A stretch of 64,000 nt of DNA, from assembly GCA_951406725.2 (NCBI GenBank), contig OX597824.1, positions 16,182,001-16,246,000 on the forward strand, in the 5' to 3' direction. The notes under the pieces are model-generated. The model saw only the letters and a list, made by a program, of their open reading frames with translations, was not told where the DNA came from and searched no databases. Positions 6,089-62,315 of this stretch are shown here, piece after piece; the stretch's first letter is position 1; each line of letters opens with the position of its first letter. The translations under genes were made by a program, and so were the position numbers. This stretch comes from Octopus vulgaris (Eukaryota).

Positions 6089-7912
6089 TTTTTTTTCTAG
6101 TTTCAGCTCAGAGCTGCGGCCATACTGATGCACCGCCGTTTTGTGCTACACTGTTATTACGGAGTACCTACTCTAATATGTGGCACTTGGTGAAGAATGG
6201 AGTTTGATACAGCTACTCTCATTTGCACCTCTTGCCGTGAGGTAGGTTCATCTGGGACTCTTGACAGGATGATGTCCAGCTTTGATTTAAAAACCGCTAC
6301 ATCTACTTTGTGCAAGTTCCTCAGACTCTTTGGGAGAATATTAAAAAGCTGTGGGCCCTTGAAACCCAGGTTGTTGCAGAAGCTGGTCCTGAAGCGTGAT
6401 GGCATTGCTGGGATCTTTGGCACTATGCAGTGTCGTCCCGTTCTAGCATTGGTGTAGCTTACAATGCCAAAATTTGGCACAATTCCTTCTAGGATCTTCC
6501 AGACATATATTACTGCATACCTCTCCCGTCTTCTCTCCAGGGAGTAGAGTCTTAGCTGTTTCAACCTTTCCCAGTAGCTGAGCTGTTGCAAAGAGACGAT
6601 CTTCTTTTTGAATCTTCTCTGGATTGCTTCAAGGTCCGCTGTTAATTTTACACTGGTGGGTGACCATAGCTGTGAGCAGTAATCCAGGCGACTGAGGACG
6701 AATGTCCGCCAGAGGACCATCATGGTTTCCTTATCTCTGGTTCTGAATGTTCTTAGGATCCACCCAGCCAGTCGTCTGCACTTTGTCGCCATCCTGGTAA
6801 TGTGCACTTGGAAAGAGGTATCATCACTCATGTCGATACCCAGGTCCCTCACAGACTTAGGCTCTGGGATTGAAATTCCCTGTGGACCGGTGTATCCTGT
6901 AAATTTAATATTCAGTTTTGGATGCTGGTAGCGCAGGACCTGGAATTTTTCAGCATTAAACTGCATATTATTATCCTCAGCCCATCTGTAGATTGAGTCT
7001 AACACCTGCTGCAGGTGTGCAACATCGCTGGGTTTCTGTATTTTCTGCGAGACTTTCGTATCGTCTGCATAGCTGGCCAGAGTGGCTATCCGGGCATTTG
7101 AAGGCATATCTGAGAGGGCCACTATAAAAAGCAGTGGTCCCAAGACAGTGCCCTGTGGAACACTGCTCACTATTTGTGTGTTCATAGAGGTGGCTCCATT
7201 AACCACTACTGCCTGACTCCTATCTTTCAGGAAGTCATGCAACCACACTCCAAGTTTTCCAGCTATGCCGAGGTCACGTAGTTTGTGGCATATCCGACCA
7301 TGATCCACCTTGTCAAAAGCTTTTGCAAAATCAAGGTAGATTACGTCCACATTTGATTTGTTGAGTAACTGCCTCAACACCCAGTCATAATGCTGTAAGA
7401 GCTGGATCAGGCAGCTCCTACCTGGTCGAAAACCAGGCTGGGTATTACTCAGCATGTTATTTTCCTCAAGGAATGCGATTAGTTTCTTTCTGACTATCCT
7501 TTCCATGACTTTGCTGATGTGTGAAGTCAGAGAGATAGGCCTATAGTTTTTGGCATCTGCTCTACTTCCCACTTTATGTATTGGGCATATTATTCCCTCC
7601 TTCAGCTTGCTTCGCAGTTTACCATTCGCAAGAAAGCTCTGGAAGAGAATCTTGAGGGGTTTTGCCAGGACATGCTTACACGCTTTGAGGAGGATGGCTG
7701 GGAAACCATCTGGACCAGCAGCTGAGTTTGTGTCCACTTCAGCTATGGCTAGTAGGACATCTTTTTCGCTAATGTCAATATATTCTATTGTAACCGCCTC
7801 GCTGGTTATAGGTGAGGCGGCAAAGAAGTCCACTGGTTCGTTCACTTGTCTGTGTTCCAACGGGGTGGTAAAGACACTTTTGAACTGGTCATTCAGCATC
7901 TCCCTGATCATA
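6089..7912 (-). mobile_element. 5'-truncated CR1-group LINE (3' part of ORF2 plus short 3' UTR)
   Basis: RT ORF followed by ggcggtgcatcagtatggccgcagctctgagctgaaact and a short A tail. A second 3'-end copy lies at 24823-24978. Confidence 0.9.
6157..7911 (-). CDS. Non-LTR retrotransposon reverse transcriptase (CR1 group), N-terminally truncated ORF2
   Basis: 584 codons without a stop. Motifs [48 protein letters not shown] and [18 protein letters not shown]. Confidence 0.92.
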
Positions 7913-7920
7913 GTTGGACT

Positions 7921-8275
7921 TTGGCTCCGGGTTCAGTTCTACTGCGTTGCACTTTGGGCAAGTGTCTTCTACTATAGCCTCAAGCAGACCAAAGCCTTGT
8001 GAGGGGATTTGTAAGATGAAAACTGAAAGAAGCCCACCGTAAATATGTATGTAAGTATAAATATAAGTGTATGTGTTTGTCCCTCCGCCACCATCGCTTG
8101 ATAACCGATGTTGTCGTGTTTACTTCCTCGTAAGGCAGCAGTTCGGTAAAACAAAAACCGATAGAATAAGTACTAGGCTTACAAAGAATAAGTCCTGGAG
8201 TCGATTTTTTCGACCAAAGGCGGTGCTCCGGTATGGCCGCAGTCAAATGACAGAAACAAGTAAAAGGATTAAGAG
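7921..8275 (+). mobile_element. SINE family S2, 5'-truncated
   Basis: gggttcagttctactgcgttgcactttgggcaagtgtc...ggcggtgctccggtatggccgcagtcaaatgacagaaac. Confidence 0.9.
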
Positions 8276-12484: not shown

Positions 12485-12640
12485 GTTCGTCTGTCTTACC
12501 GTTCTGAGTTCAAATCCCGCCGAGGTCGACTTTGCCTTTCATTCTTTCGGGGTCGATAAACTAAGTACCAACTGCATACTGGGCTCGATCCAATCTGCCC
12601 CACAAAATTTCAGGCCTTGTGCCTATAGTAAAAAAGATTA
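12485..12640 (+). mobile_element. SINE family S1 (Meta-domain-like), 5'-truncated
   Basis: gttctgagttcaaatcccgccgaggtcgactttgcctttcattctttcggggtcgataaac. Confidence 0.85.
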
Positions 12641-16466: not shown

Positions 16467-16561
<95 letters not shown>

Positions 16562-16562
<1 letters not shown>

Positions 16563-16780
16563 GCGGCGAGCTGGCAGAAGCGTTAGCACGCCGGGCGAAA
16601 TGCGTAGCCGTATTTCGTATTTCGTCAAATTCCGCCGAGGTCGACTTTGCCTTTCATCCTTTCGGGGGTCGTTAAATTAAGTACCAGTTACGCACTGGGG
16701 TCAATGTAATCGACTTAATCCGTTTGGCTGTCCTTGTTTGTCCCCTCTGTGTTTAGCCCCTTGTGGGTAGTAAAGAAATA
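16562..16780 (+). mobile_element. SINE family S1 (tRNA head, Meta-like domain, Tx1-like tail)
   Basis: ggcggcgagctggcagaa...gcctttcatcctttcggggtcg...tgtgtttagccccttgtgggtagtaaagaaata, flanked by (TA)n. Confidence 0.92.
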
Positions 16781-27469: not shown

Positions 27470-28341
27470 AAGTTTTAGTACAAGTAGAACATTTTTGGGG
27501 CAACGCTTTTTACGTGTGTGTGTGTGTTTGTGTGTGTACATTCGTATATACACGTGTACACACACACATACGCACTCACACATTAATATACATAAAAGCA
27601 ATTTTCAAGGGTAGCACTAGAAAACCGATGTTCGTTTTAAGAGATCGCACGTAGATCCATTATATACCGTATCAAATATTCACGCCCATTCGCACACTCA
27701 GACACACACACACACACACACTGACACCGGCATAAACATATATACAAACATACTACGCAAGTAGAGGATTATTGTGAAGTTGGTACCTGAGAGATCGATA
27801 TATATTGATGGATGGGCAGATATGAGCTAATATGAAAAATAAATTATAAACAAAACAAACAAACAAGAGGCAAACAAATTAGTATTACTTTATTTAATAT
27901 GAAGGAGATGCAAATGATAAAGGGAAAGAATACAGATGGAAATTGATGGAATGAAACAAATGAAGGAAAGAAGGAAAGAATATAAGGAGTGGGAGGAAGA
28001 TTTAAGAATGTGTGGGGGAAAGCGGTGGAGGCAGATACAGAGAAGCCGGAGTGTTTTTAGTGGGAGTACGAATAATTTATGAAGAACGAATGGCAATCAT
28101 GTGTCAAAATGGATTGGAAAGCTTCGTGATTGAGTCATTAAAAGTGATCGAATCAATGGCTATCGTACGTCACTTGCTGAACAAAATTGCTTTGATCACC
28201 AGCCACATGCAAACATGAATACAAACAAACGTACAGGCATACAGGTATATCTACCTGCATACTTACCTGCGTGTCTGCATACCTACCTGTATGCATACAC
28301 ATTCATAGATGTACCTGCATATATATATATATATATGAAAA

Positions 28342-28570
28342 GGCGGCGAGCTGGCAGAAACGTTAGCACGCCGGGTGAAATGCTAAGCGGTATTTCGTCT
28401 GTCGTTACGTTCTGAGTTCAAATTCCGCCGAGGTCGACTTTGCCTTTCATCCTTTCGGGGTCGATAAATAAAGTACCAGTTACGCACTGGGGTCGATGTA
28501 ATCGACTTAATCCCTTTGTCTGTCCTTGTTTGTCCCCTCTGTCTTTAGCCCCTTGTGGGTAGTAAAGAAA
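28342..28570 (+). mobile_element. SINE family S1, full-length monomer
   Basis: Complete head-to-tail copy between (TA)n tracts. Confidence 0.93.
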
Positions 28571-28770
28571 AATATATATATATATATATATATATATACG
28601 TACACATATTCATAAATGTATATATATATATATATATATATGCATACACACATACATCCATGTATATATATATGTGTCTGTGTGCACATACATGTATACA
28701 CGCACACACATATATACACACATCCACATATAGCTATATGTATAATGTGTATACGTATATATGTGCATGC

Positions 28771-29153: not shown

Positions 29154-30071
29154 AGGTATGTATGTATGTATGTATGTATGTATGTATATATATATATGTG
29201 TATAGAAAGAGAGACACAGAAACACATCAACATCATCATAAGGAAGATGTAAATCAAAAGTAACAACAAGAACAACAACAACCTCAGTAATTGTAGATGT
29301 AACAAGTCCGCCAACGCTATTAGTAACAAAAACTACGACCACTACGACCGCCATCACTACGACCACCAACACCACCACCACCACCACCACAACTTCAACA
29401 AAGATTACAAAGATATTTGTTCATCAATATCTTTCATTTTTCTCAGCTAATACTAACACATACACACACACACACACATAGAGAAACACACACACACACA
29501 CACTCACACACACACACACACACACACAGACAGACGCACACACACACACAGAGAAACACACAAAGACGTATTAGCGCAAATTAGTCCCGATCAAATAGTT
29601 TGATAGATTAGTAGAATTAGCTCTTAATTCCTCTAATTTGTCGCTATTCAAATATAGTAATTACCAATATCTTCAGCCATCTCACCGCCGCCGCCACCGC
29701 CGCCGCCACCGCCGCCGCCACCGCCGCCGCCATCCACTCTCTAAACTCTCTGTCTCTATCATTCGCTATTATCTCTCAACTATCTTCCACAACACCCAAG
29801 TCCCCGCCAGCCCGCCCCTTCCACCTCGTCATTCCTCCCTCTTTCTCTTTGTCTCTTTGTCCATTCTCGTTCTGTGTTACTCTCAATACGTGTCTCCTTC
29901 GGTCACCGATTACTGTTCACTTTATCAGTCTTGTATGTGTGAAATCGTTTATATTATTCATATGTATAGAGTGACAATCAGTCTTTATCCGCGTGACCCT
30001 GATAACTCTGGCATTTTTTCAAACACGTACGACAAGCTTAAAGGTTGGGTTCTATACAGTTCTCGCTCAAA

Positions 30072-30437
30072 GGCGGCGAGCTGGCAGAAACGTTAGCACG
30101 CCGGGCGAAATACTCAGCGGTATTTCGTCTGCCGTTACGTTCTGAGTTCAAATTCCGCCGAGGTTTTCTTTGCCTTTGTTCCTTTCGGGGTCGATAAATT
30201 AAGTACCAGTCAAGCACTGGAGTTGATGTAATTGACTTAATCCGTTTGTCTGTCCTTGTTTGTCTCCTCTGTGTTTAGCCCCTTGTGGGTAGTAAAGAAA
30301 TAGGTATTTCGTCTGCCGTTACGTTCTGAGTTCAAATTCCGTCGAGGTAGGCTTTGCTTTTCATCCTTTCGGGGTCGATTAAATAAGTAACAGTTACGCA
30401 CTGGGATCGATATAATTGACTTAATCCATTTGTCTGT
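30072..30437 (+). mobile_element. SINE family S1 dimer (full unit plus head-less second unit)
   Basis: tatttcgtctgccgttacg recurs at 30121 and 30305 (period 184); junction GAAATA-GG-TATTTC. Confidence 0.92.
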
Positions 30438-40458: not shown

Positions 40459-40834
40459 ACATAACGGATAATCTTCCATGATGGTGGTGGTGGAGATGGC
40501 CGTGGTGGTGGTCATTGTCGTAGCCATCATCATCGTCATCGTAGTAATGATGTTATTCTTGTTGGTGCCGTGTGTCCCCAGGTCAGTCATGATCAAGCAT
40601 TCAAATGACAATCTGGGGTTCTTTGGGGGCAACTGGGGTTGAACGACGAGGAATGGTCCGCATATCCATTGTCCTAATCGTACCATGTTATCAGCTATTT
40701 AGGACCATAGCGCAAACTACGGCGTGCAGTGATCTCTCGATTAGGGGTTAGTTGAACAGTTTGGACAAAGCGTTTCTCAACTGCCCAGCTTATTTCTAAA
40801 TATGCGTGTATATTAATAATATTTTTTATTATAA

Positions 40835-41400
40835 GCACAAGGCCTGAAATTTTAGGTTAGTCGATTAAAATGACCCCAGTGCGTAACTGGTACTTAGTTC
40901 ATCGACCCAGAAAGGATGAAAGGCAAAGTCGACATCGGCGGAGTTCGAACTCAGAACGGAGCGACGAGTGAAATACCTATTTCTTTACTACCCACAAGGG
41001 GTTAAATAAAGAAGGGACAAACAAGGACAGACAAAGAGATTAAGCTGATTATATCGACCCCAGTGCGTAACTGGTACTTAGTTCATCGACCCAGAAAGGA
41101 TGAAAGGCAAAGTCGATCTCGGCGGAATTTGAACTCAGAACATAGCGGCAGACGAAATACCGCTATGCATTTCACTTGATGTGCTAAAGTTTCTGCCAGC
41201 TCGCCGCCTTTAAATATCCTTTCTCCTCTAGACACAAGATTCGAAATCGCTGGTGGAGGGGCCCAGTCGATTAGATCGTCTCCTGTACGCAACAGGTACT
41301 TAATTTATCGACCTCGAAAAGAAGAAATGCAAAGTCAATCTCAGTGGAATTTGAGCTCACAACGTAGAGACAGACAAAATAACGCTAATCATTTCGCCCG
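40835..41400 (-). mobile_element. Cluster of SINE S1 units including a dimer
   Basis: Head ends ~41209; junction gaaatacctatttc at 40970-40983. Confidence 0.88.
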
Positions 41401-41408
41401 ACGTGTGG

Positions 41409-41635
41409 AGGCGTGTGGCTTAGTGGCTAGGGTGTTGAACTCATGATCGTAAGGTTGTGGTTTCGATTCCTGGACCGGGCGATGCGTTGTGTTCTTGAGC
41501 AAAACACTTCATTTTCACGTTGATCCAGTTCACTCAGATGGCAAAAATGAGTAATCCTGCGATGGACCGGCGCTCCGTACAGGTGGGGGATTTCTACGCC
41601 ACTGAAATCGGGAAACCTGGCATGGCTCCAGAAGG
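41409..41635 (+). mobile_element. tRNA-derived SINE with CORE-like domain
   Basis: ggcgtgtggcttagtggctaggg...ggtttcgattcctggacc...gttgtgttcttgagcaaaacactt. Confidence 0.82.
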
Positions 41636-41676
41636 AATATTTATTTTTTTTTGTATTTCGCCCTGTTTGCTAGCGT

Positions 41677-42145
41677 TTCTTATTTCTTTATTGCCCAAAA
41701 GGGGCTAAACATAGAGGGGATAAACAAGGGCAGACAAAGCGATTGAGTCGATCACATCGACCCCAGTGCGTAACTGGTACTTAATTTATCGGCCCCGAAA
41801 GGATGAAAGGCAAAGTCGACCTCGGCGGAATTTGAACTCAGAACGTAGCAGCAGGCGAAATACCTATTTCTTTACTGCCCACAAGGGGCTACACACAGAG
41901 GGGACAAACAAGGACAGAAAAACGGATTAAGTCAATTATATCGGTCCCTGTGCGTAGCTGGTGCGTATTTAATCGACCCCGAAAAGATGAAAGGCAAAGT
42001 CGTCCTCGGCGGAATTTGAACTCAGAACGTAGCAGCAGACGAAATACCTATTTCTTTACTGCCCACAAAGGGCTACACACAGAGGGGACAAACAAGGAAT
42101 AGACAAATGGATTACGTCGATTATATTGACCCCAATGCGTAATTG
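41677..42145 (-). mobile_element. Tandem array of head-less 184-bp SINE S1 units (~2.5 units)
   Basis: gaaatacctatttc at 41857 and 42041. Confidence 0.92.
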
Positions 42146-42399
42146 TCCTTGTTTAAAAACAAGTTTTATAGAATGCTATTAATTAATGTTTTCACACATT
42201 AACTTGTGAAAGTTAAACTATGTTAAATGTTAGAGAAAGAAAGATGTTTCGTATGATACATACCAATACATACATCTAAAGCAAAATTTTTTCAGGGTCC
42301 CTTAAAATAGTATTGTGGATCTTCTGTTTCCTATTTTGCTGTATGGACCCCCACAAAATCTTATAAGGAACCAAGTTGAGAATCACTGGTCTAAATAAA

Positions 42400-43030
42400 A
42401 GAAGGTGCTAGTCGACTACACCAATTGGTAATTATGTTATCGACCCTGAAGTGATGAAAGACGAAGTCAACCCCGGCGGAATTTGTACTCAGAATGTAAA
42501 GGCGGACGAAACACCGCTAAGCATTTCGTCCGGCGTACTAATGATTCTGCCAGCTCTCCGCCTTAGGTATACACTTATATACATTTCTACCTATTTCTTT
42601 ATTACCCACAAGGGGCTAAACACAGAGGGGACAAACAAGGACAGACATAGGTATTAAGTCGATTACATCGACCCCAGTGCGTAACTGGTACTTAATTTAT
42701 CGACCCCGAAAGGGTGAAAGGCAAAGTCGACCTCGGCGGAATTTGAACTCACAACGTAACGCTGACGAAATACCGCTAAGCATTTCGCCCGGCGTGCTAA
42801 CGTTTCTGCCAGCTCGCCGCTTTCTACCATAGGCACAAAGTCTCCCTTTGAAGAAGGGGACTAGTCGATCCCATCGACGCCAGTGTTCAAATAGTACTTG
42901 TTTTATTGACCCCAGGAAGAACGAAATGCAAAATTGACTTCGGTGGAGTTTGATATCAAAACGCAAAAGCGGGCGAAATGCCGCTAAGCATTTTGCCGGG
43001 CGGGCTGACGATTCTGGCAGCTCGTCGTTT
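42400..43030 (-). mobile_element. Three further SINE S1 copies (full monomer at 42590-42822)
   Basis: Three ...cagctcgccg-type heads near 42560, 42820 and 43025. Confidence 0.85.
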
Positions 43031-46478: not shown

Positions 46479-47555
46479 CCCGCGAGTGTCGCGTTGCTCT
46501 CAAGCAACTCTGCCGTCCTGGGTCGACCTTGAGTGACTTCAACACAACCAAAGCATTCTATAGGGGATTAGTGGAGGGGAGGTACGACGACGAGCTCGGG
46601 GCGAACCTGGACGTCGACGAGGAGTACCTGACCCGCCTGTTCAGGACGACTTTCAGGCCAGGGCCCATGGACAACTTCCAGAGATCCCTGGCCTGGCAGT
46701 GTTACCGAGAAGCGCTACCCGTTCGGGATAAGCTCTACAGACACGGCTCGAGAAACACGGGGCCGACCTGCCCGAGATGCGGTCAGAGCGACGAAACCGT
46801 TCTGCACGCACTCGTGCAGTGTCCAACAATTTCCGACCTGTGGGCTTATGTCGAACAACTGCTGTCACGTGTGGGACGAGTCGGTTTATCAGCTGAGTCT
46901 ATCGTCAATATTGTCACGCCTCCTTCCTTCAAACGGGAAAGGAAGAGCTATTTTCATCATCCTTGTGGCTATGGCGAAAGAATGTATCTGGTGGACGCGT
47001 CTGAAAGGATTGGAGACAAACACTTTCCTCTCTGGTCAATCTCTCATCAACTTCTTCAAGTACCACTTGAAAAAGAAAGTGAAGAGTAGAGAGGCAAGTT
47101 TTGTCTAGCGAATGTTTTAAAAAAAGATGGGTGAATGTAGCAAGGATGGCACGTATGAATGACGAAGCCACCTTGAGCATAATCCTATGAACCCAGAAAT
47201 TGAAAACAGAGGGTTACCCACTTGCAAACAAATGTGGTAACATATAACAATATTGACCAAGGTTACCGTGGTCTTTTTCGTAGGCTTTTCTTCCCACGGA
47301 TAAACCTTACTTGCTATCCCCTTTACACCATATATCATAACACTGTGATACACGATCCCTATTGATCGTTCTTTTTTTTTCCTCTTCCCCTTTTTTCTTC
47401 CTTTTTCATTTCTCTTTTCTTTTGTTCCTTTTCCTTTTCTTTTTCTTTTTTTAATTCTTTTTCTTTTGTCTTTTGTTTTTTCATCCCCCAAAAGAAAAGC
47501 TCTACCTTGTAACTTGTCCCATCTGTGTGCAGCCCTGTGTGGCCAATAAAGAAAC
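46479..47555 (+). mobile_element. 5'-truncated Tx1/L1-type LINE (zf-RVT region plus T-rich 3' UTR) in (TATC)n
   Basis: FQRSLAWQCYREALPVRDKLYRHG...CPRCGQSDETVLHALVQCP, then frameshifted AKECIWWTR; ends aataaagaaac followed by tatctatc. Confidence 0.88.
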
Positions 47556-55246: not shown

Positions 55247-55264
55247 TTTATATTTTGGTAAAAA

Positions 55265-55475
55265 GGCGGCGAGCTGGCAGAAACGTTAGCACGCCGGGCG
55301 AAATGCGTAGCCGTATTTCGTCTGTCGTTACGTTCTGAGTTCAAATTCCGCCGAGGTCGACTTTGCCTTTCATCCTTCCGGGGGTCGATAAATTAAGTAC
55401 CATTTACGCACTGGGGTTGATGTAATCGACTAAATCCCTTTGTCTGTGTTTAGCCCCTTGTGGGTAGTAAAGAAA
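55265..55475 (+). mobile_element. SINE family S1 monomer
   Basis: Head-to-tail copy with a small 3' deletion. Confidence 0.92.
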
Positions 55476-56149
55476 TATATATTTGGGTAAAAATAACTCT
55501 TAAACTAATTATCCGTATGATTAAGACTTACGTTAATGGTTTGTTGCCCGTGTCGTTGTCGTTACAGCTGCAGCAGCTCCTACTTATGATGATGATGATG
55601 ATGATGATGAAGATGAGAATGAGCAGAATGAGTAATAAGTAAGAGGATGACAAGGACGGCTTTCATGATGACATTAGAATTTAAAATTTTATTTGTAATT
55701 AATATTGTTGCTGTTACAATAGTTGTAGCTGTACCTTCTGCAACAAGTGGGTCCTGGTTGCTAACATTACTGCTGAATAGATCAGGTTTTGTGAGAAGTC
55801 TGTTTACTCCTGTTTGTGTCAATGATGGTATTTTTGTTCGTGATACAGCTCTCTTTGCCTATAATTTGCTCTCTTTCTGCAGACGATGCGTCGAGAGTTT
55901 CACTTATGACTCAATTTCATATTTATTTCTTACATGTTTATTTAAAAACCACACAAAAAGAACCTAATAATTGTTACTATTGTTTGTGTTGTAATACATT
56001 GTACAATGCTTGTCTTCTTTTCACAAGCAAATTCACGGAGGTATATGCATATACGTATGCATGTATGTATGCGTGTATGTATGTACGTATGCATGTATAT
56101 TCGTTCATACACACACGTATGTGTGTGTGTTGGACCGCTGAAATCTATA

Positions 56150-56564: not shown

Positions 56565-56697
56565 TGAGTGTATTTTACCTTGTTAACAATTAACACGGAT
56601 AAATGAATGAATAGTTACCAGGGCAGCAAAAATCTCACAAGTAAATATCAATAACAAGGTTATTGTATCTGAAGTCAATCCCAATAGAATTAAATTT

Positions 56698-57087
56698 ATG
56701 TCAAGTAACTCTAAGATTAAAAATTCTATATACCAGTGTATAATCAGTACTCGTAATAAAGTACGATTTTACATTGGAAGCACATCGTTAGAGTTATCTA
56801 AGAGAATTTCTATCCATTACTCAACATTTAGGGATAGAAATAAACGGAATAGTACCGGTCTCAGCAAACTGATTTGGGATTTAAAAGACCACAATGAACA
56901 ATTTCATTTAGAATGGTTGATCCTCTCAATTTCGATACCATATGACAAAGGCAAGAAATTCTGTCTTCTCTGCAATTCTGAGCTATTTTTCATTATTTTT
57001 TCTAAAAATACTCTAGTAAACACGGTTACAGAACGAGCATACAGATGTAAGCATTGGCAGAAACATACTTTTAGTGCATATAAGTAG
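56698..57087 (+). CDS. GIY-YIG endonuclease of Penelope-like element type (resembles Naiad-type C-terminal domain)
   Basis: SIYQC...FYIGSTS...KRISIH...STGLSKLIWDLK...LEW...CLLCNSE...LVN...RCKH; uninterrupted 129 aa. Confidence 0.85.
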   Translation: MSSNSKIKNSIYQCIISTRNKVRFYIGSTSLELSKRISIHYSTFRDRNKRNSTGLSKLIWDLKDHNEQFHLEWLILSISIPYDKGKKFCLLCNSELFFIIFSKNTLVNTVTERAYRCKHWQKHTFSAYK

Positions 57088-60465: not shown

Positions 60466-60509
60466 AATCTATCTATCTATCTATCAATCTATTTATCATA
60501 TTTATCTAT

Positions 60510-61452
60510 CATATAACAATATTGACCAAGGTTACCGTGGTCTTTTTCGTAGGCTTTTCTTCCCACGGATAAACCTTACTTGCTTTCCCCTTTACACCAT
60601 ACATCATGACACTGTGATACGCGATCCCTATTGATCGTTTTTTTCCTCTCCCCCTTTTTTCCTCTTTTTTCTTCTCTTTTCATTTTACTTTTTTTTTCCC
60701 TTTTTTCTTTTTTTCTTTTCCTTTTTTTTCTTTTTTTCTTTTCCTCTTTTATTCTTTTTTCTATGTTCTTTTTTCCCTTTTATGATCCCTTTTGATCGAA
60801 AACCTACGCCACCTTTTTTTTTTCCTCCCCCAAAAGAAAAGCTCTACCTTGTAACTTGTCCCATCTGTGTGCAGCCCTGTGTGGCCAATAAAGAAACTTA
60901 TCTATCTATCTATCCATCTATTTATCGAAGCCACCTTGAGCATGATCCTATGAACCCAGAAATTGAAAACAGAGAGTTGCTTATTTGCAAAAAACCCCCC
61001 CCTTTTTTTGTCCTCTTTCTCTCCTTTTACGATCCCTTTTGATCGAAACTCCCCCCTTCTTTTTTTTTTTTTTTTTTTTTTCTTTAACCCTTCAAAAGAA
61101 AAGCTCTACCTTGTAATTTGTTCTATCTGTGTGCAGCCCTGTGTGGCTAATAAAGAAACATATCTATGAATTTAAGAGAGAACACTTTGCTCTCATGTGT
61201 TTGTTTCCTCCCTACCTGAGGTTACCGTGGTTTTTCCGTAGGCTTTTCTTTCCACGGATAAACCTAATCTTACTTTTTACATTTTAAAAATTCTTCTGTG
61301 ATACACGATTCTTTTTAATTGTTTTTTCCTGATCTCTTTTGATCGGAATTTTCCTTTTTTTCTTATTTTCCTCCTTTTTTTTCATTTTCGAAAAGAAAAG
61401 CTCTACATTTGTATTTCACCCTTTGTGTTTAGCCCTGTGTGGCTAATAAAGA
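60510..61452 (+). mobile_element. Three tandem 3'-UTR fragments of the Tx1-type LINE, each ending in (TATC)n
   Basis: aaaagaaaagctctac...agccctgtgtggc.aataaaga ends near 60897, 61159 and 61452. Confidence 0.9.
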
Positions 61453-61768
<316 letters not shown>

Positions 61769-61769
61769 T

Positions 61770-62075
61770 GGTGTGGAACAGATGATAGTCAGATGCGGGT
61801 AAATCAGTAAAAGTGGGACGGAGATCAACCATTTCAAAGTCACAGTCTTGCTCAGAAGCCATTGAAACCAAGGACTTGTAGATAGAAACGCTGTCCTGAT
61901 GAAAGAAGACGCATTTCATCAGATTTCTTCGGCGTTTGGTCTTGGTAGCCTTTCGTATTTGCCTCAACAAGTTGACATAATAATCTCCAATGTTGGTGTG
62001 GCCCGTTTGAAGATAGTCAATAAACAATGCCTTTTGTATCGAAAAAGTCTGGAGCCATAAGCTTCCACACATATA
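61770..62075 (-). pseudogene. Mariner (DD34D) transposase fragment
   Basis: LFIDYLQTGHTNIGDYYVNLLRQIRKA...FFHQDS...PTFTDLPASDYHLF (degenerate YSPDLAPSDYHLF). Confidence 0.88.
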
Positions 62076-62315
62076 AACCAATACCAATCGCTCCCACCCA
62101 TTATTTTTCCTTTTCCAATTTCTTATGGTTGCTTTCCCCCCCTTTTCACTGTCTGAAGTATGAAAATGTCCGAAACGTTGTTGTCCTTAATACTTCCCCT
62201 TCCCTTCAGCTTCAAAATAATAGCATAACTTATTTCGTCCTTTCATTTTTTTATTCCTCATGTATGCACATACATCCTTATATACACATACAGATTTATA
62301 CATACATACATACAT

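Follow-up and report, generated by a model that had tools for sequence, protein, structure and literature searches.

Short tandem arrays of a tRNA-derived SINE in Octopus vulgaris share one exact tail-to-head join, in which the last base of one unit (SINE position 233) is followed directly by position 50 of the next. The join was found in a single window, the 64,000-nucleotide stretch of contig OX597824.1 that was analyzed and to whose numbering all coordinates refer, and it is confirmed as a real feature of this DNA. At present this is a small observation: four joins, in three arrays of one window, not all of them independent. The explanation that we favor, tentatively and at somewhat less than an even chance, is that a LINE enzyme reverse-transcribes linear SINE RNA into position 50 of already existing genomic copies, likely guided and spread by read-through RNA.

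The SINE family and its likely partner LINE

The repeat unit is a 233-nt SINE consisting of a tRNA-like head, a body that matches UCON3, and a LINE-like tail (tail A). The window is AT-rich and laden with microsatellites, and the family covers 6% of it. An older group of copies (B-type) has the head and body in common with the A-type, and several of these copies end in a different tail (tail B). An A-box-like 8-mer at position 13 and a B-box-like 6-mer at position 77, scanned with patterns that we take to represent the two boxes, are present in all three headed copies scanned. ARAGORN detected no tRNA genes in the 64-kb window. The element has the attributes of a tRNA-derived SINE (SINE2): i) putative Pol III A- and B-box-like motifs in a tRNA-like head; ii) a 3' tail common to SINE and LINE; and iii) dispersed copies with target site duplications, which are clear (8, 13, and 16 bp) at all three single copies tested. 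A run of four T residues (T4 terminator) is absent from all four SINE monomers.

The last 50 nt of tail A resemble a LINE 3' end (76-84%, blastn) that was found four times in the window. Tail A scored 66-69 against these four ends, and in each case none of 1000 shuffles equaled the score. A zf-RVT domain lies upstream of one of the four; it is the only domain of this LINE that is left, and zf-RVT domains are linked to L1/Tx1 elements. The element likely represents the partner lineage of the SINE:

46481..47554, + strand: LINE with a zf-RVT domain, 5'-truncated and situated in (TATC)n; tail A matches its last 50 nt (76-84%)

At 60507-61455 (+) and 46481-47554 (+), three 5'-truncated LINE 3' ends lie in tandem, each followed by TATC-type sequence, and the LINE appears to prefer (TATC)n.

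The SINE was initially labeled a MetaSINE (MESC), a class defined by a 66-bp Meta domain; this label was dropped in favor of UCON3. Motifs of the SINE body matched nothing in the supplements of PMC4824008, PMC4758252, and PMC11481361, whose searched text does not include the Meta consensus itself. Body positions 91-138 agree with the UCON3 domain at 37 of 48 positions in the snake SINE2-1_CrH and at 36 of 48 in the coral SINE2-15_ADi, by a hand count without a statistical test (PMC7245038). Judged by sequence, the octopus element is thus a putative UCON3-domain SINE, with the UCON3 body between head and tail. The rows of Fig. S2 in the available part of that paper include no cephalopod, and the extended anticodon-like hairpin and the tail of the octopus SINE lie outside the comparison made there.

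The arrays and the join

The array units, the joins, and the copies with which they are compared are as follows.

30070..30118, + strand: intact tRNA-like head (1-49) of array D30070, with the A-box-like motif at position 13
30119..30302, + strand: unit 1 of array D30070 (50-233, tail A)
30297..30310, + strand: join 1, tail end followed by position 50; matches the join 14-mer
30303..30437, + strand: unit 2 of array D30070, head-less, cut at position 184; five derived bases in common with 41865-42048
41162..41210, - strand: head of array D41210, 7 of 48 bases off consensus
40978..41161, - strand: unit 1 (the inner unit) of array D41210 (50-233, tail A), 14 of 181 bases off consensus
40970..40983, - strand: join 2, tail A onto position 50 of a B-type unit
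40815..40977 (lower end approximate), - strand: second unit of array D41210, head-less, continuing into tail B
42049..42155, - strand: unit 1 of array T, 5'-truncated (about 127-233)
42041..42054, - strand: join 4; matches the join 14-mer
41865..42048, - strand: unit 2 of array T (50-233)
41857..41870, - strand: join 3; matches the join 14-mer
41681..41864, - strand: unit 3 of array T (50-233)
41653..41680, - strand: degenerate fragment of a head (17-44), adjoining the final tail of array T (E 0.001 by blastn, 0.14 by nhmmer)
41406..41652, + strand: unrelated repeat (we take it to be CORE-like) with five other matches in the window; it appears to split the head of an old B-type copy
41211..41405, - strand: old B-type copy (28-168 plus tail B), the likely target beneath array T
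42592..42823, - strand: young full monomer with an 8-bp target duplication, GGTAGAAA, in the tail of a B-type copy
42824..43029, - strand: old B-type copy, the target of monomer 42592..42823
16560..16780, + strand: young monomer in (TA)n
28340..28572, + strand: young monomer in (TA)n, used as the position reference
55263..55477, + strand: young monomer with a 16-bp target duplication (1 mismatch)

Searched with up to one mismatch allowed, the join 14-mer GAAATAGGTATTTC gave four matches, all exact, at 30297 (+), 40970 (-), 41857 (-), and 42041 (-). The mean in shuffled sequence was 0.04, and none of 100 shuffles reached four. The GAAATA-GG-TATTTC join that had been noted at these places is exact in all four; each connects position 233 to position 50 with no spacer, so that the unit is 184 nt long, also as noted. 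The joins fall in three arrays of two to three units. The original prediction of head-less multimers at separate loci needs amending: the downstream units are head-less, but arrays D30070 and D41210 begin with a full head and array T is 5'-truncated at its start, so only downstream units lack the head. Similarly, there are three arrays, but two of them are only ~470 bp apart. The junction is fixed in that the four joins are identical, but it is not the only one in the window; the fragment at 41653..41680 forms a fifth tail-to-head join, at position 17.

The region 40800-43030 (-) contains nine family units or copies in one orientation within 2.3 kb, several of them head-to-tail. An A-box-like 8-mer also occurs in the tail (position 221; 30290-30301 (+) and 40979-40990 (-)), 40 nt before the B box of the next unit. 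The join might thereby create a new Pol III promoter from the tail motif and the next B box, if the motifs act as their sequences suggest; array T does not have the tail motif.

The head hairpin

The join lies in a 13-bp head hairpin in which positions 33-45 pair with 50-62 across a 4-nt loop, position 50 being the first base past the loop. Among 11 heads, 93.7% of 143 cells are paired, a value matched by 7 of 500 shuffles, and slid controls gave 35-57%. Covariation is confined to two pairs that changed on both sides. The anatomy had been described correctly: the join is inside the anticodon-arm equivalent, and the stem is conserved across the 11 heads. The hairpin formed at the junction is weak, with a 5-bp core and a DNA folding energy of -1.4 to -1.8 kcal/mol; RNA folding in 30-nt windows gave -1.5 to -7.6 kcal/mol for the junction hairpin versus -10.7 to -15.3 kcal/mol for the head hairpin. 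Whole-strand folds were not better than those of shuffles (z -1.2 and -1.0).

A stem of at least 5 bp with the tail end is possible at only 5 of 218 candidate join positions. The complementarity between tail and head is thus unlikely to be pure chance and probably mattered at least once. The proposal that the SINE 3' end can pair with the head arm finds partial agreement in predicted folds: the probability of tail pairing with 52-57 is ~0.8-1.0 in two of the four head-less units, but it is ~0.01 in the other two and 0.0 in all three full monomers. As modeled, the tail would pair with 52-57 only where the 5' arm is absent. Two of the four young monomers (16604-16609 (+) and 55307-55312 (+)) carry T45G together with G50C, which turns the loop-closing U-G into a G-C pair and removes GGTA from the join site.

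Relationships and ages of the units

Units of the same array are no more alike than units of different arrays. The comparison, suggested along with the original prediction, gave identities of 531/616 (86.2%) within arrays versus 1736/2043 (85.0%) between arrays, which disfavors the arrays being local DNA duplications. The second units 30303 and 41865 have five derived bases in common (0.65 expected) that are absent from the neighbor 41681; this is one of 21 array-unit pairs, and its tree support is 87/83, not starred. A tree of 18 units gave no well-supported branch, and unit 1 of array D30070 and unit 1 of array T have no derived bases in common in 89 columns. The pattern, i.e., similar identities and shared bases that skip a neighbor, favors several source templates over a single circle or plain local duplication. 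The bases shared by 30303 and 41865 fit a single head-less lineage as the source of both units.

Array units are older than monomers, with 102/1177 versus 30/899 bases off consensus (8.7% versus 3.3%, p=4e-7; divergence from the majority of 11 rows). In the head, B-type copies are off consensus at 4-9 of 48 bases, D41210 at 7, and the other A-type copies at 1-2. The 3'-most unit of array T has diverged by 7.1% and the others by 9.8-10.1%. The join is present both on the older, more LINE-like tail of array T and on the younger tail. Bases common to the units of array T were considered as a signal of a common template and rejected: 206G, and probably 221C, match the LINE end and may be ancestral.

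The two units of array D41210 are identical over 61 nt (95-155) and differ at 11 of 45 positions upstream (permutation p=4e-5); from the sequences, the tract is likely a product of gene conversion. Outside it, the second unit is off consensus at 12 of 57 bases versus 14 of 181 in the inner unit (p=0.013). The head is of B-like age, but the difference from the inner unit gives p=0.16. The second unit ends in tail B and has the B-type base at position 61 (found in 5 of 8 B copies and in none of 9 other A-type rows); B-like bases thus appear within 8-11 nt after join 2, with tail B later. The B assignment of positions 50-70 comes from one diagnostic base and likeness to one B copy, and over 50-94 the second unit matches A rows at 34-36 of 45 positions (23 in one deleted row) and B rows at 29-31. 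The head has A at position 21 as in A-type heads (one of the six B heads with that column). The simplest reading would be a younger A unit inside an older B element at position 50. The B-like second unit (tail, base 61, age) and the B-aged head argue for insertion into an existing copy, and the A-type base 21 argues against it.

The duplicated 17 nt of the old head under array T show six differences (p=0.02 relative to divergence at the array level). The head on which array T ends was split by another repeat long before, which points to an old genomic target.

Tail ends and target sites

Nine tail-A ends were found in the window: four at the join, two in (TA)n, one at the 16-bp duplication, which starts TATATTT, one at the 8-bp duplication GGTAGAAA, and one at head position 17. 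Eight of the nine are GAAATA; the left side of the join thus resembles an ordinary insertion end, and all five tail-to-head joins end at A233, as the monomer insertions do. Monomers had been described as mostly ending in GAAATA followed by (TA)n. The GAAATA end stands, but only two of nine ends lie in (TA)n, which is found on both flanks and is probably target, not tail.

Same-strand family sequence adjoins six of the nine tail-A ends, although the family covers 6% of the window, which argues for insertion into the SINE's own copies; five of the six are in one 2.3-kb cluster. Direct evidence that the SINE inserts into its relatives comes from the target duplication of monomer 42592, which entered a family copy at a site starting with GGTA (the chance of at least one in five such ends is 0.014). 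A 9-nt near-duplication with 1 mismatch may flank the whole of the D41210 composite; nothing convincing was found in a search for target duplications around arrays D30070 and T. One solitary copy (12486) starts at ~55 and has a 13-bp duplication. In the window, no solitary copy starts at position 50, and no out-of-register insertion was seen at that position.

TAT occurs at +3 to +5 in 11 of 13 SINE and LINE tail ends, the join included, a count inflated by microsatellite targets; it is a possible nicking preference. The sites of B-type copies (18637, 20120, 31190, 12486) are (ATT)n or AT-rich and those of A-type monomers are (TA)n, which suggests two partner LINEs with different microsatellite targets.

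How the arrays may have formed

Insertion into existing copies is a fourth route beyond the rolling circle, programmed template jumping, and single ancestral multimer offered earlier, and it has separate evidence in the window. The first join would have been a rare event, probably aided by pairing of the tail with 52-57. Pol III would then read from the head through the tail into the next unit, producing an RNA that carries the tail plus GGUAUUUC; since the monomers have no four-T run, an array RNA would read through the join. Where any A- or B-type copy is nicked at position 50, the GGUAUUUC extension would pair with the nicked strand, and priming would remake the join. A shorter match, GGUA, would account for the insertion at 42592. 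The far end of the new DNA would anneal in register to the head of the target, giving head + unit + unit. Some arrays might be copied whole as multi-unit RNA, which would account for array T, and neighbors would later be partly homogenized by gene conversion. Several features argue against this route: array T has no 5' head remnant or target duplication, so that a deletion is needed; its unit at the 3' end, which should be the target, has diverged least; and the location of the join at the loop is left to a one-off origin. If RNA-guided homing into one base of the SINE's own copies does occur, it would account directly for the fixed boundaries and would let SINE subfamilies exchange tails, as at 40977.

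Of the routes offered earlier, programmed template jumping is the one that stands as a live rival, possible though rather doubtful. Here, site-specific template switching or RNA joining would make head + unit + unit in one insertion: the RNA would be cut, or the enzyme would stall, at the hairpin loop (49|50) or in the D-loop equivalent (16|17), whereupon the LINE enzyme would continue from the 3' end of another SINE RNA kept in place by tail pairing. This agrees with the join being precisely where the conserved hairpin leaves its loop, with the small number of positions that give such a stem (5 of 218), with the tail-to-5'-end pairing predicted in two of four head-less units and with the solitary copy at 12486 (start ~55, 13-bp duplication). 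Array T needs no deletion, and the A-type base 21 in the D41210 head fits. Fungal LINE chimeras join a full-length 5' part to a 5'-truncated 3' part at GCC*A/U hot spots (PMC2104539), and R2 jumps between RNA templates in vitro (PMC11194090). However, co-inserted parts should be of the same age and those of D41210 differ (p=0.013), the position-17 target looks old, and the GGTA target duplication at 42592 is not predicted. The second RNA must enter exactly at A233 in all five joins, a solitary copy starting at 50 is absent from the window, and the sites are AGC*G (50) and GGC*A (17), not GCC*A/U. Pure descent, in which one accidental ancestral multimer became a source gene and all joins are its copies, is unlikely. 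The identity of the join, the derived bases shared by 30303 and 41865, the greater age of array units as a group (p=4e-7), and monomers without a T4 terminator speak for it, and dimeric SINEs that amplify as dimers are known (PMC10702118). An ancestral multimer is nevertheless insufficient alone, since one join leads to a B-type unit, with B-like bases within 8-11 nt of join 2 and then tail B; furthermore, the first units of D30070 and T share no derived bases in 89 columns, and the join sits on both the older LINE-like and the younger tail.

Likewise unlikely is a retrozyme-like route borrowed from tRNA splicing, in which a tRNA-processing nuclease cuts the loop of the extended anticodon-like SINE hairpin, the tail pairs with the new 5' end, and tRNA ligase joins them, giving ribozyme-free circular or concatenated RNAs that are inserted by a LINE. 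Such a route, if true, would connect the movement of SINEs with the processing of tRNAs. Very unlikely is an origin at the DNA level, by duplication or unequal exchange at a site prone to form hairpins, a mechanism put forward for SINE-derived satellites. The 61-nt identical tract of D41210 (p=4e-5) points to DNA-level exchange between neighbors, and reptile arrays of the same overall layout are discussed in terms of unequal recombination (PMC10702118). However, duplication would make array-mates alike, and they are not; exchange at the GAAAT microhomology of tail and head would leave the loop in place and give a unit longer than 184 nt; and short low-copy reptile loci have variable boundaries, in the available part of the same paper. 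The least likely reading is rolling-circle reverse transcription of a 184-nt circular RNA. The unit falls inside the 170-400 nt range of animal retrozymes (PMC7229834), and folding predictions have the ends pairing across the join for two of four circles (probability 0.4-0.67, 37 C). It is opposed by the heads at the 5' end of two of the three arrays, by one unit with tail B, and by the heterogeneity of the units: identity within arrays hardly exceeds that between them, and the bases common to 41865 and 30303 are absent from the neighbor 41681. The three arrays have no hammerhead core on either strand, and two array regions have no Rfam ribozyme.

The hammerhead search used CTGANGA and gave, among 12 strand scans, a single match, antisense of one monomer. 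Rfam matches in the two array regions numbered just two, both weak and unrelated (E 5.1 and 2); in the whole window, microsatellite-driven miRNA noise was found among the 150 of 393 matches listed. Since 50-56 can pair with 132-138, an HDV-like ribozyme was also weighed; it was rejected, the P3/L3 elements being missing by eye when compared with what we take to be the HDV-like topology.

Comparison with known systems

Tandem SINE units with a fixed head truncation (squamates, a bivalve), target-specific SINEs (crocodilians), and fixed-site LINE chimeras (a fungus) are already known from the available parts of the papers cited below. The octopus element works most like a target-specific SINE with itself as the target. 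In the literature searched, which was mostly open-access and did not reach Repbase/Dfam or the 1994 octopus SINE paper, no paper on the octopus join was found; a full-text search with three sequence strings gave one paper, unrelated as judged from its title and abstract, and none of the text read describes a SINE that targets itself at a hairpin loop in two subfamilies.

The squamate satellites sSat1-3 (PMC10702118) are alike in having a tandem unit shorter than the SINE, one extended terminal unit, and the same boundaries at many loci. Their units are 70-290 nt, and some span from the head end through the body and the LINE-derived region. The octopus unit is likewise shorter than the SINE (184 nt), with an extended terminal unit in the form of the head in two of three arrays. 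Unlike the squamate satellites, which have at least four middle monomers and homogenized units, the octopus arrays have two to three unhomogenized units (86.2% versus 85.0%), and the join looks like a retroposition 3' junction at a hairpin loop. Being short and unhomogenized, they are not yet a satellite. For sSats, DNA-level amplification is proposed; self-insertion and RNA guidance were not found among the proposals in the available part of that paper. HCD-SINE multimers of the bivalve Scapharca broughtonii (PMC11481361) also have a first copy with a complete head and later ones truncated at the same head position, but their internal copies are 3'-truncated as well, whereas the octopus join uses the full LINE-derived tail and involves two subfamilies. 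How a SINE gives rise to tandem repeats with the same boundaries is left open in these reptile and bivalve studies, which, as far as the available text goes, lean on DNA-level recombination.

The crocodilian SINEU-3/Tx1-Mar system (PMC4494074) provides a case in which a target-specific LINE moves a SINE into another repeat, with tandems arising by sequential insertion. In Tx1-driven SINEs, targeting is enhanced when target sequence is transcribed along with the SINE. Typical of such elements is that more than 20% of flanks belong to one target type; 4 of 9 octopus tail-A ends are at position 50, a small number of ends that are not independent. The target of SINEU-3 is a Mariner element, and its copies are separated by a target duplication, whereas the octopus target is the SINE's own head and the head-less unit is seamless, the four joins having no spacer and hence no target duplication sandwiched between tandem copies. 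MINE chimeras of Magnaporthe grisea (PMC2104539) are alike in their full-length 5' part and 5'-truncated 3' part, a layout also seen in arrays D30070 and D41210, in their recurrent exact positions, and in their use of LINE machinery. MINE fuses different RNAs at GCC*A/U with clean flanking repeats; the octopus arrays consist of same-family units, one with an age gap, and the sites AGC*G (50) and GGC*A (17) differ from the MINE motif. Animal non-LTR retrozymes (PMC7229834) have tandem units of similar size but are defined by a hammerhead and by abundant unit-length RNA, both linear and circular; the octopus arrays, with a Pol III-type head, a LINE tail, and no hammerhead core, are not retrozymes. 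Arrays of this kind would confuse repeat consensus libraries and age estimates where SINEs make up ~12% of the DNA (PMC13282606).

SINE sequences outside the window

Translations of the SINE antisense strand gave five protein matches, four of them named Octopus bimaculoides, at 56-90% identity; further searches of this type gave 0 and 20 matches, and an antisense query spanning the join gave none. Of 21 distinct matches, 18 were mapped; the three weakest were set aside, as was one repetitive match due to chance. The position-50 join was found in none of the 18 SINE-derived predicted proteins mapped: 15 continue into the head (partly by eye), two hint at tail joins near 16-19, and one at a join near 59. 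The sample is small and clustered and is skewed toward ORFs that have start codons; it leaves the join neither confirmed nor refuted and does not support its being abundant across the genome. No stray SINE copies turned up when bacterial and archaeal genomes were scanned.

Judged by eye, proteins P0012 and P0018 suggest a tail-to-head join near position 17, as at 41653-41680 (-). The antisense strand of the SINE lies inside the predicted O. bimaculoides proteins P0002-P0005, which include a kelch-like and a PLAT-domain protein; this is either exonization or annotation error.

Other features of the window

A LINE at 6157-7932 (-) is represented by an open frame of 591 codons in which an RVT_1 domain was recognized (E 1e-32). 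A frame at 56611-57087 (+) has a weak GIY-YIG match (E 0.001, below the cut-off) and is possibly a Penelope-like remnant. At 61764-62186 (-) there is a partial DDE transposase match (E 3e-5), likely a mariner-type remnant.
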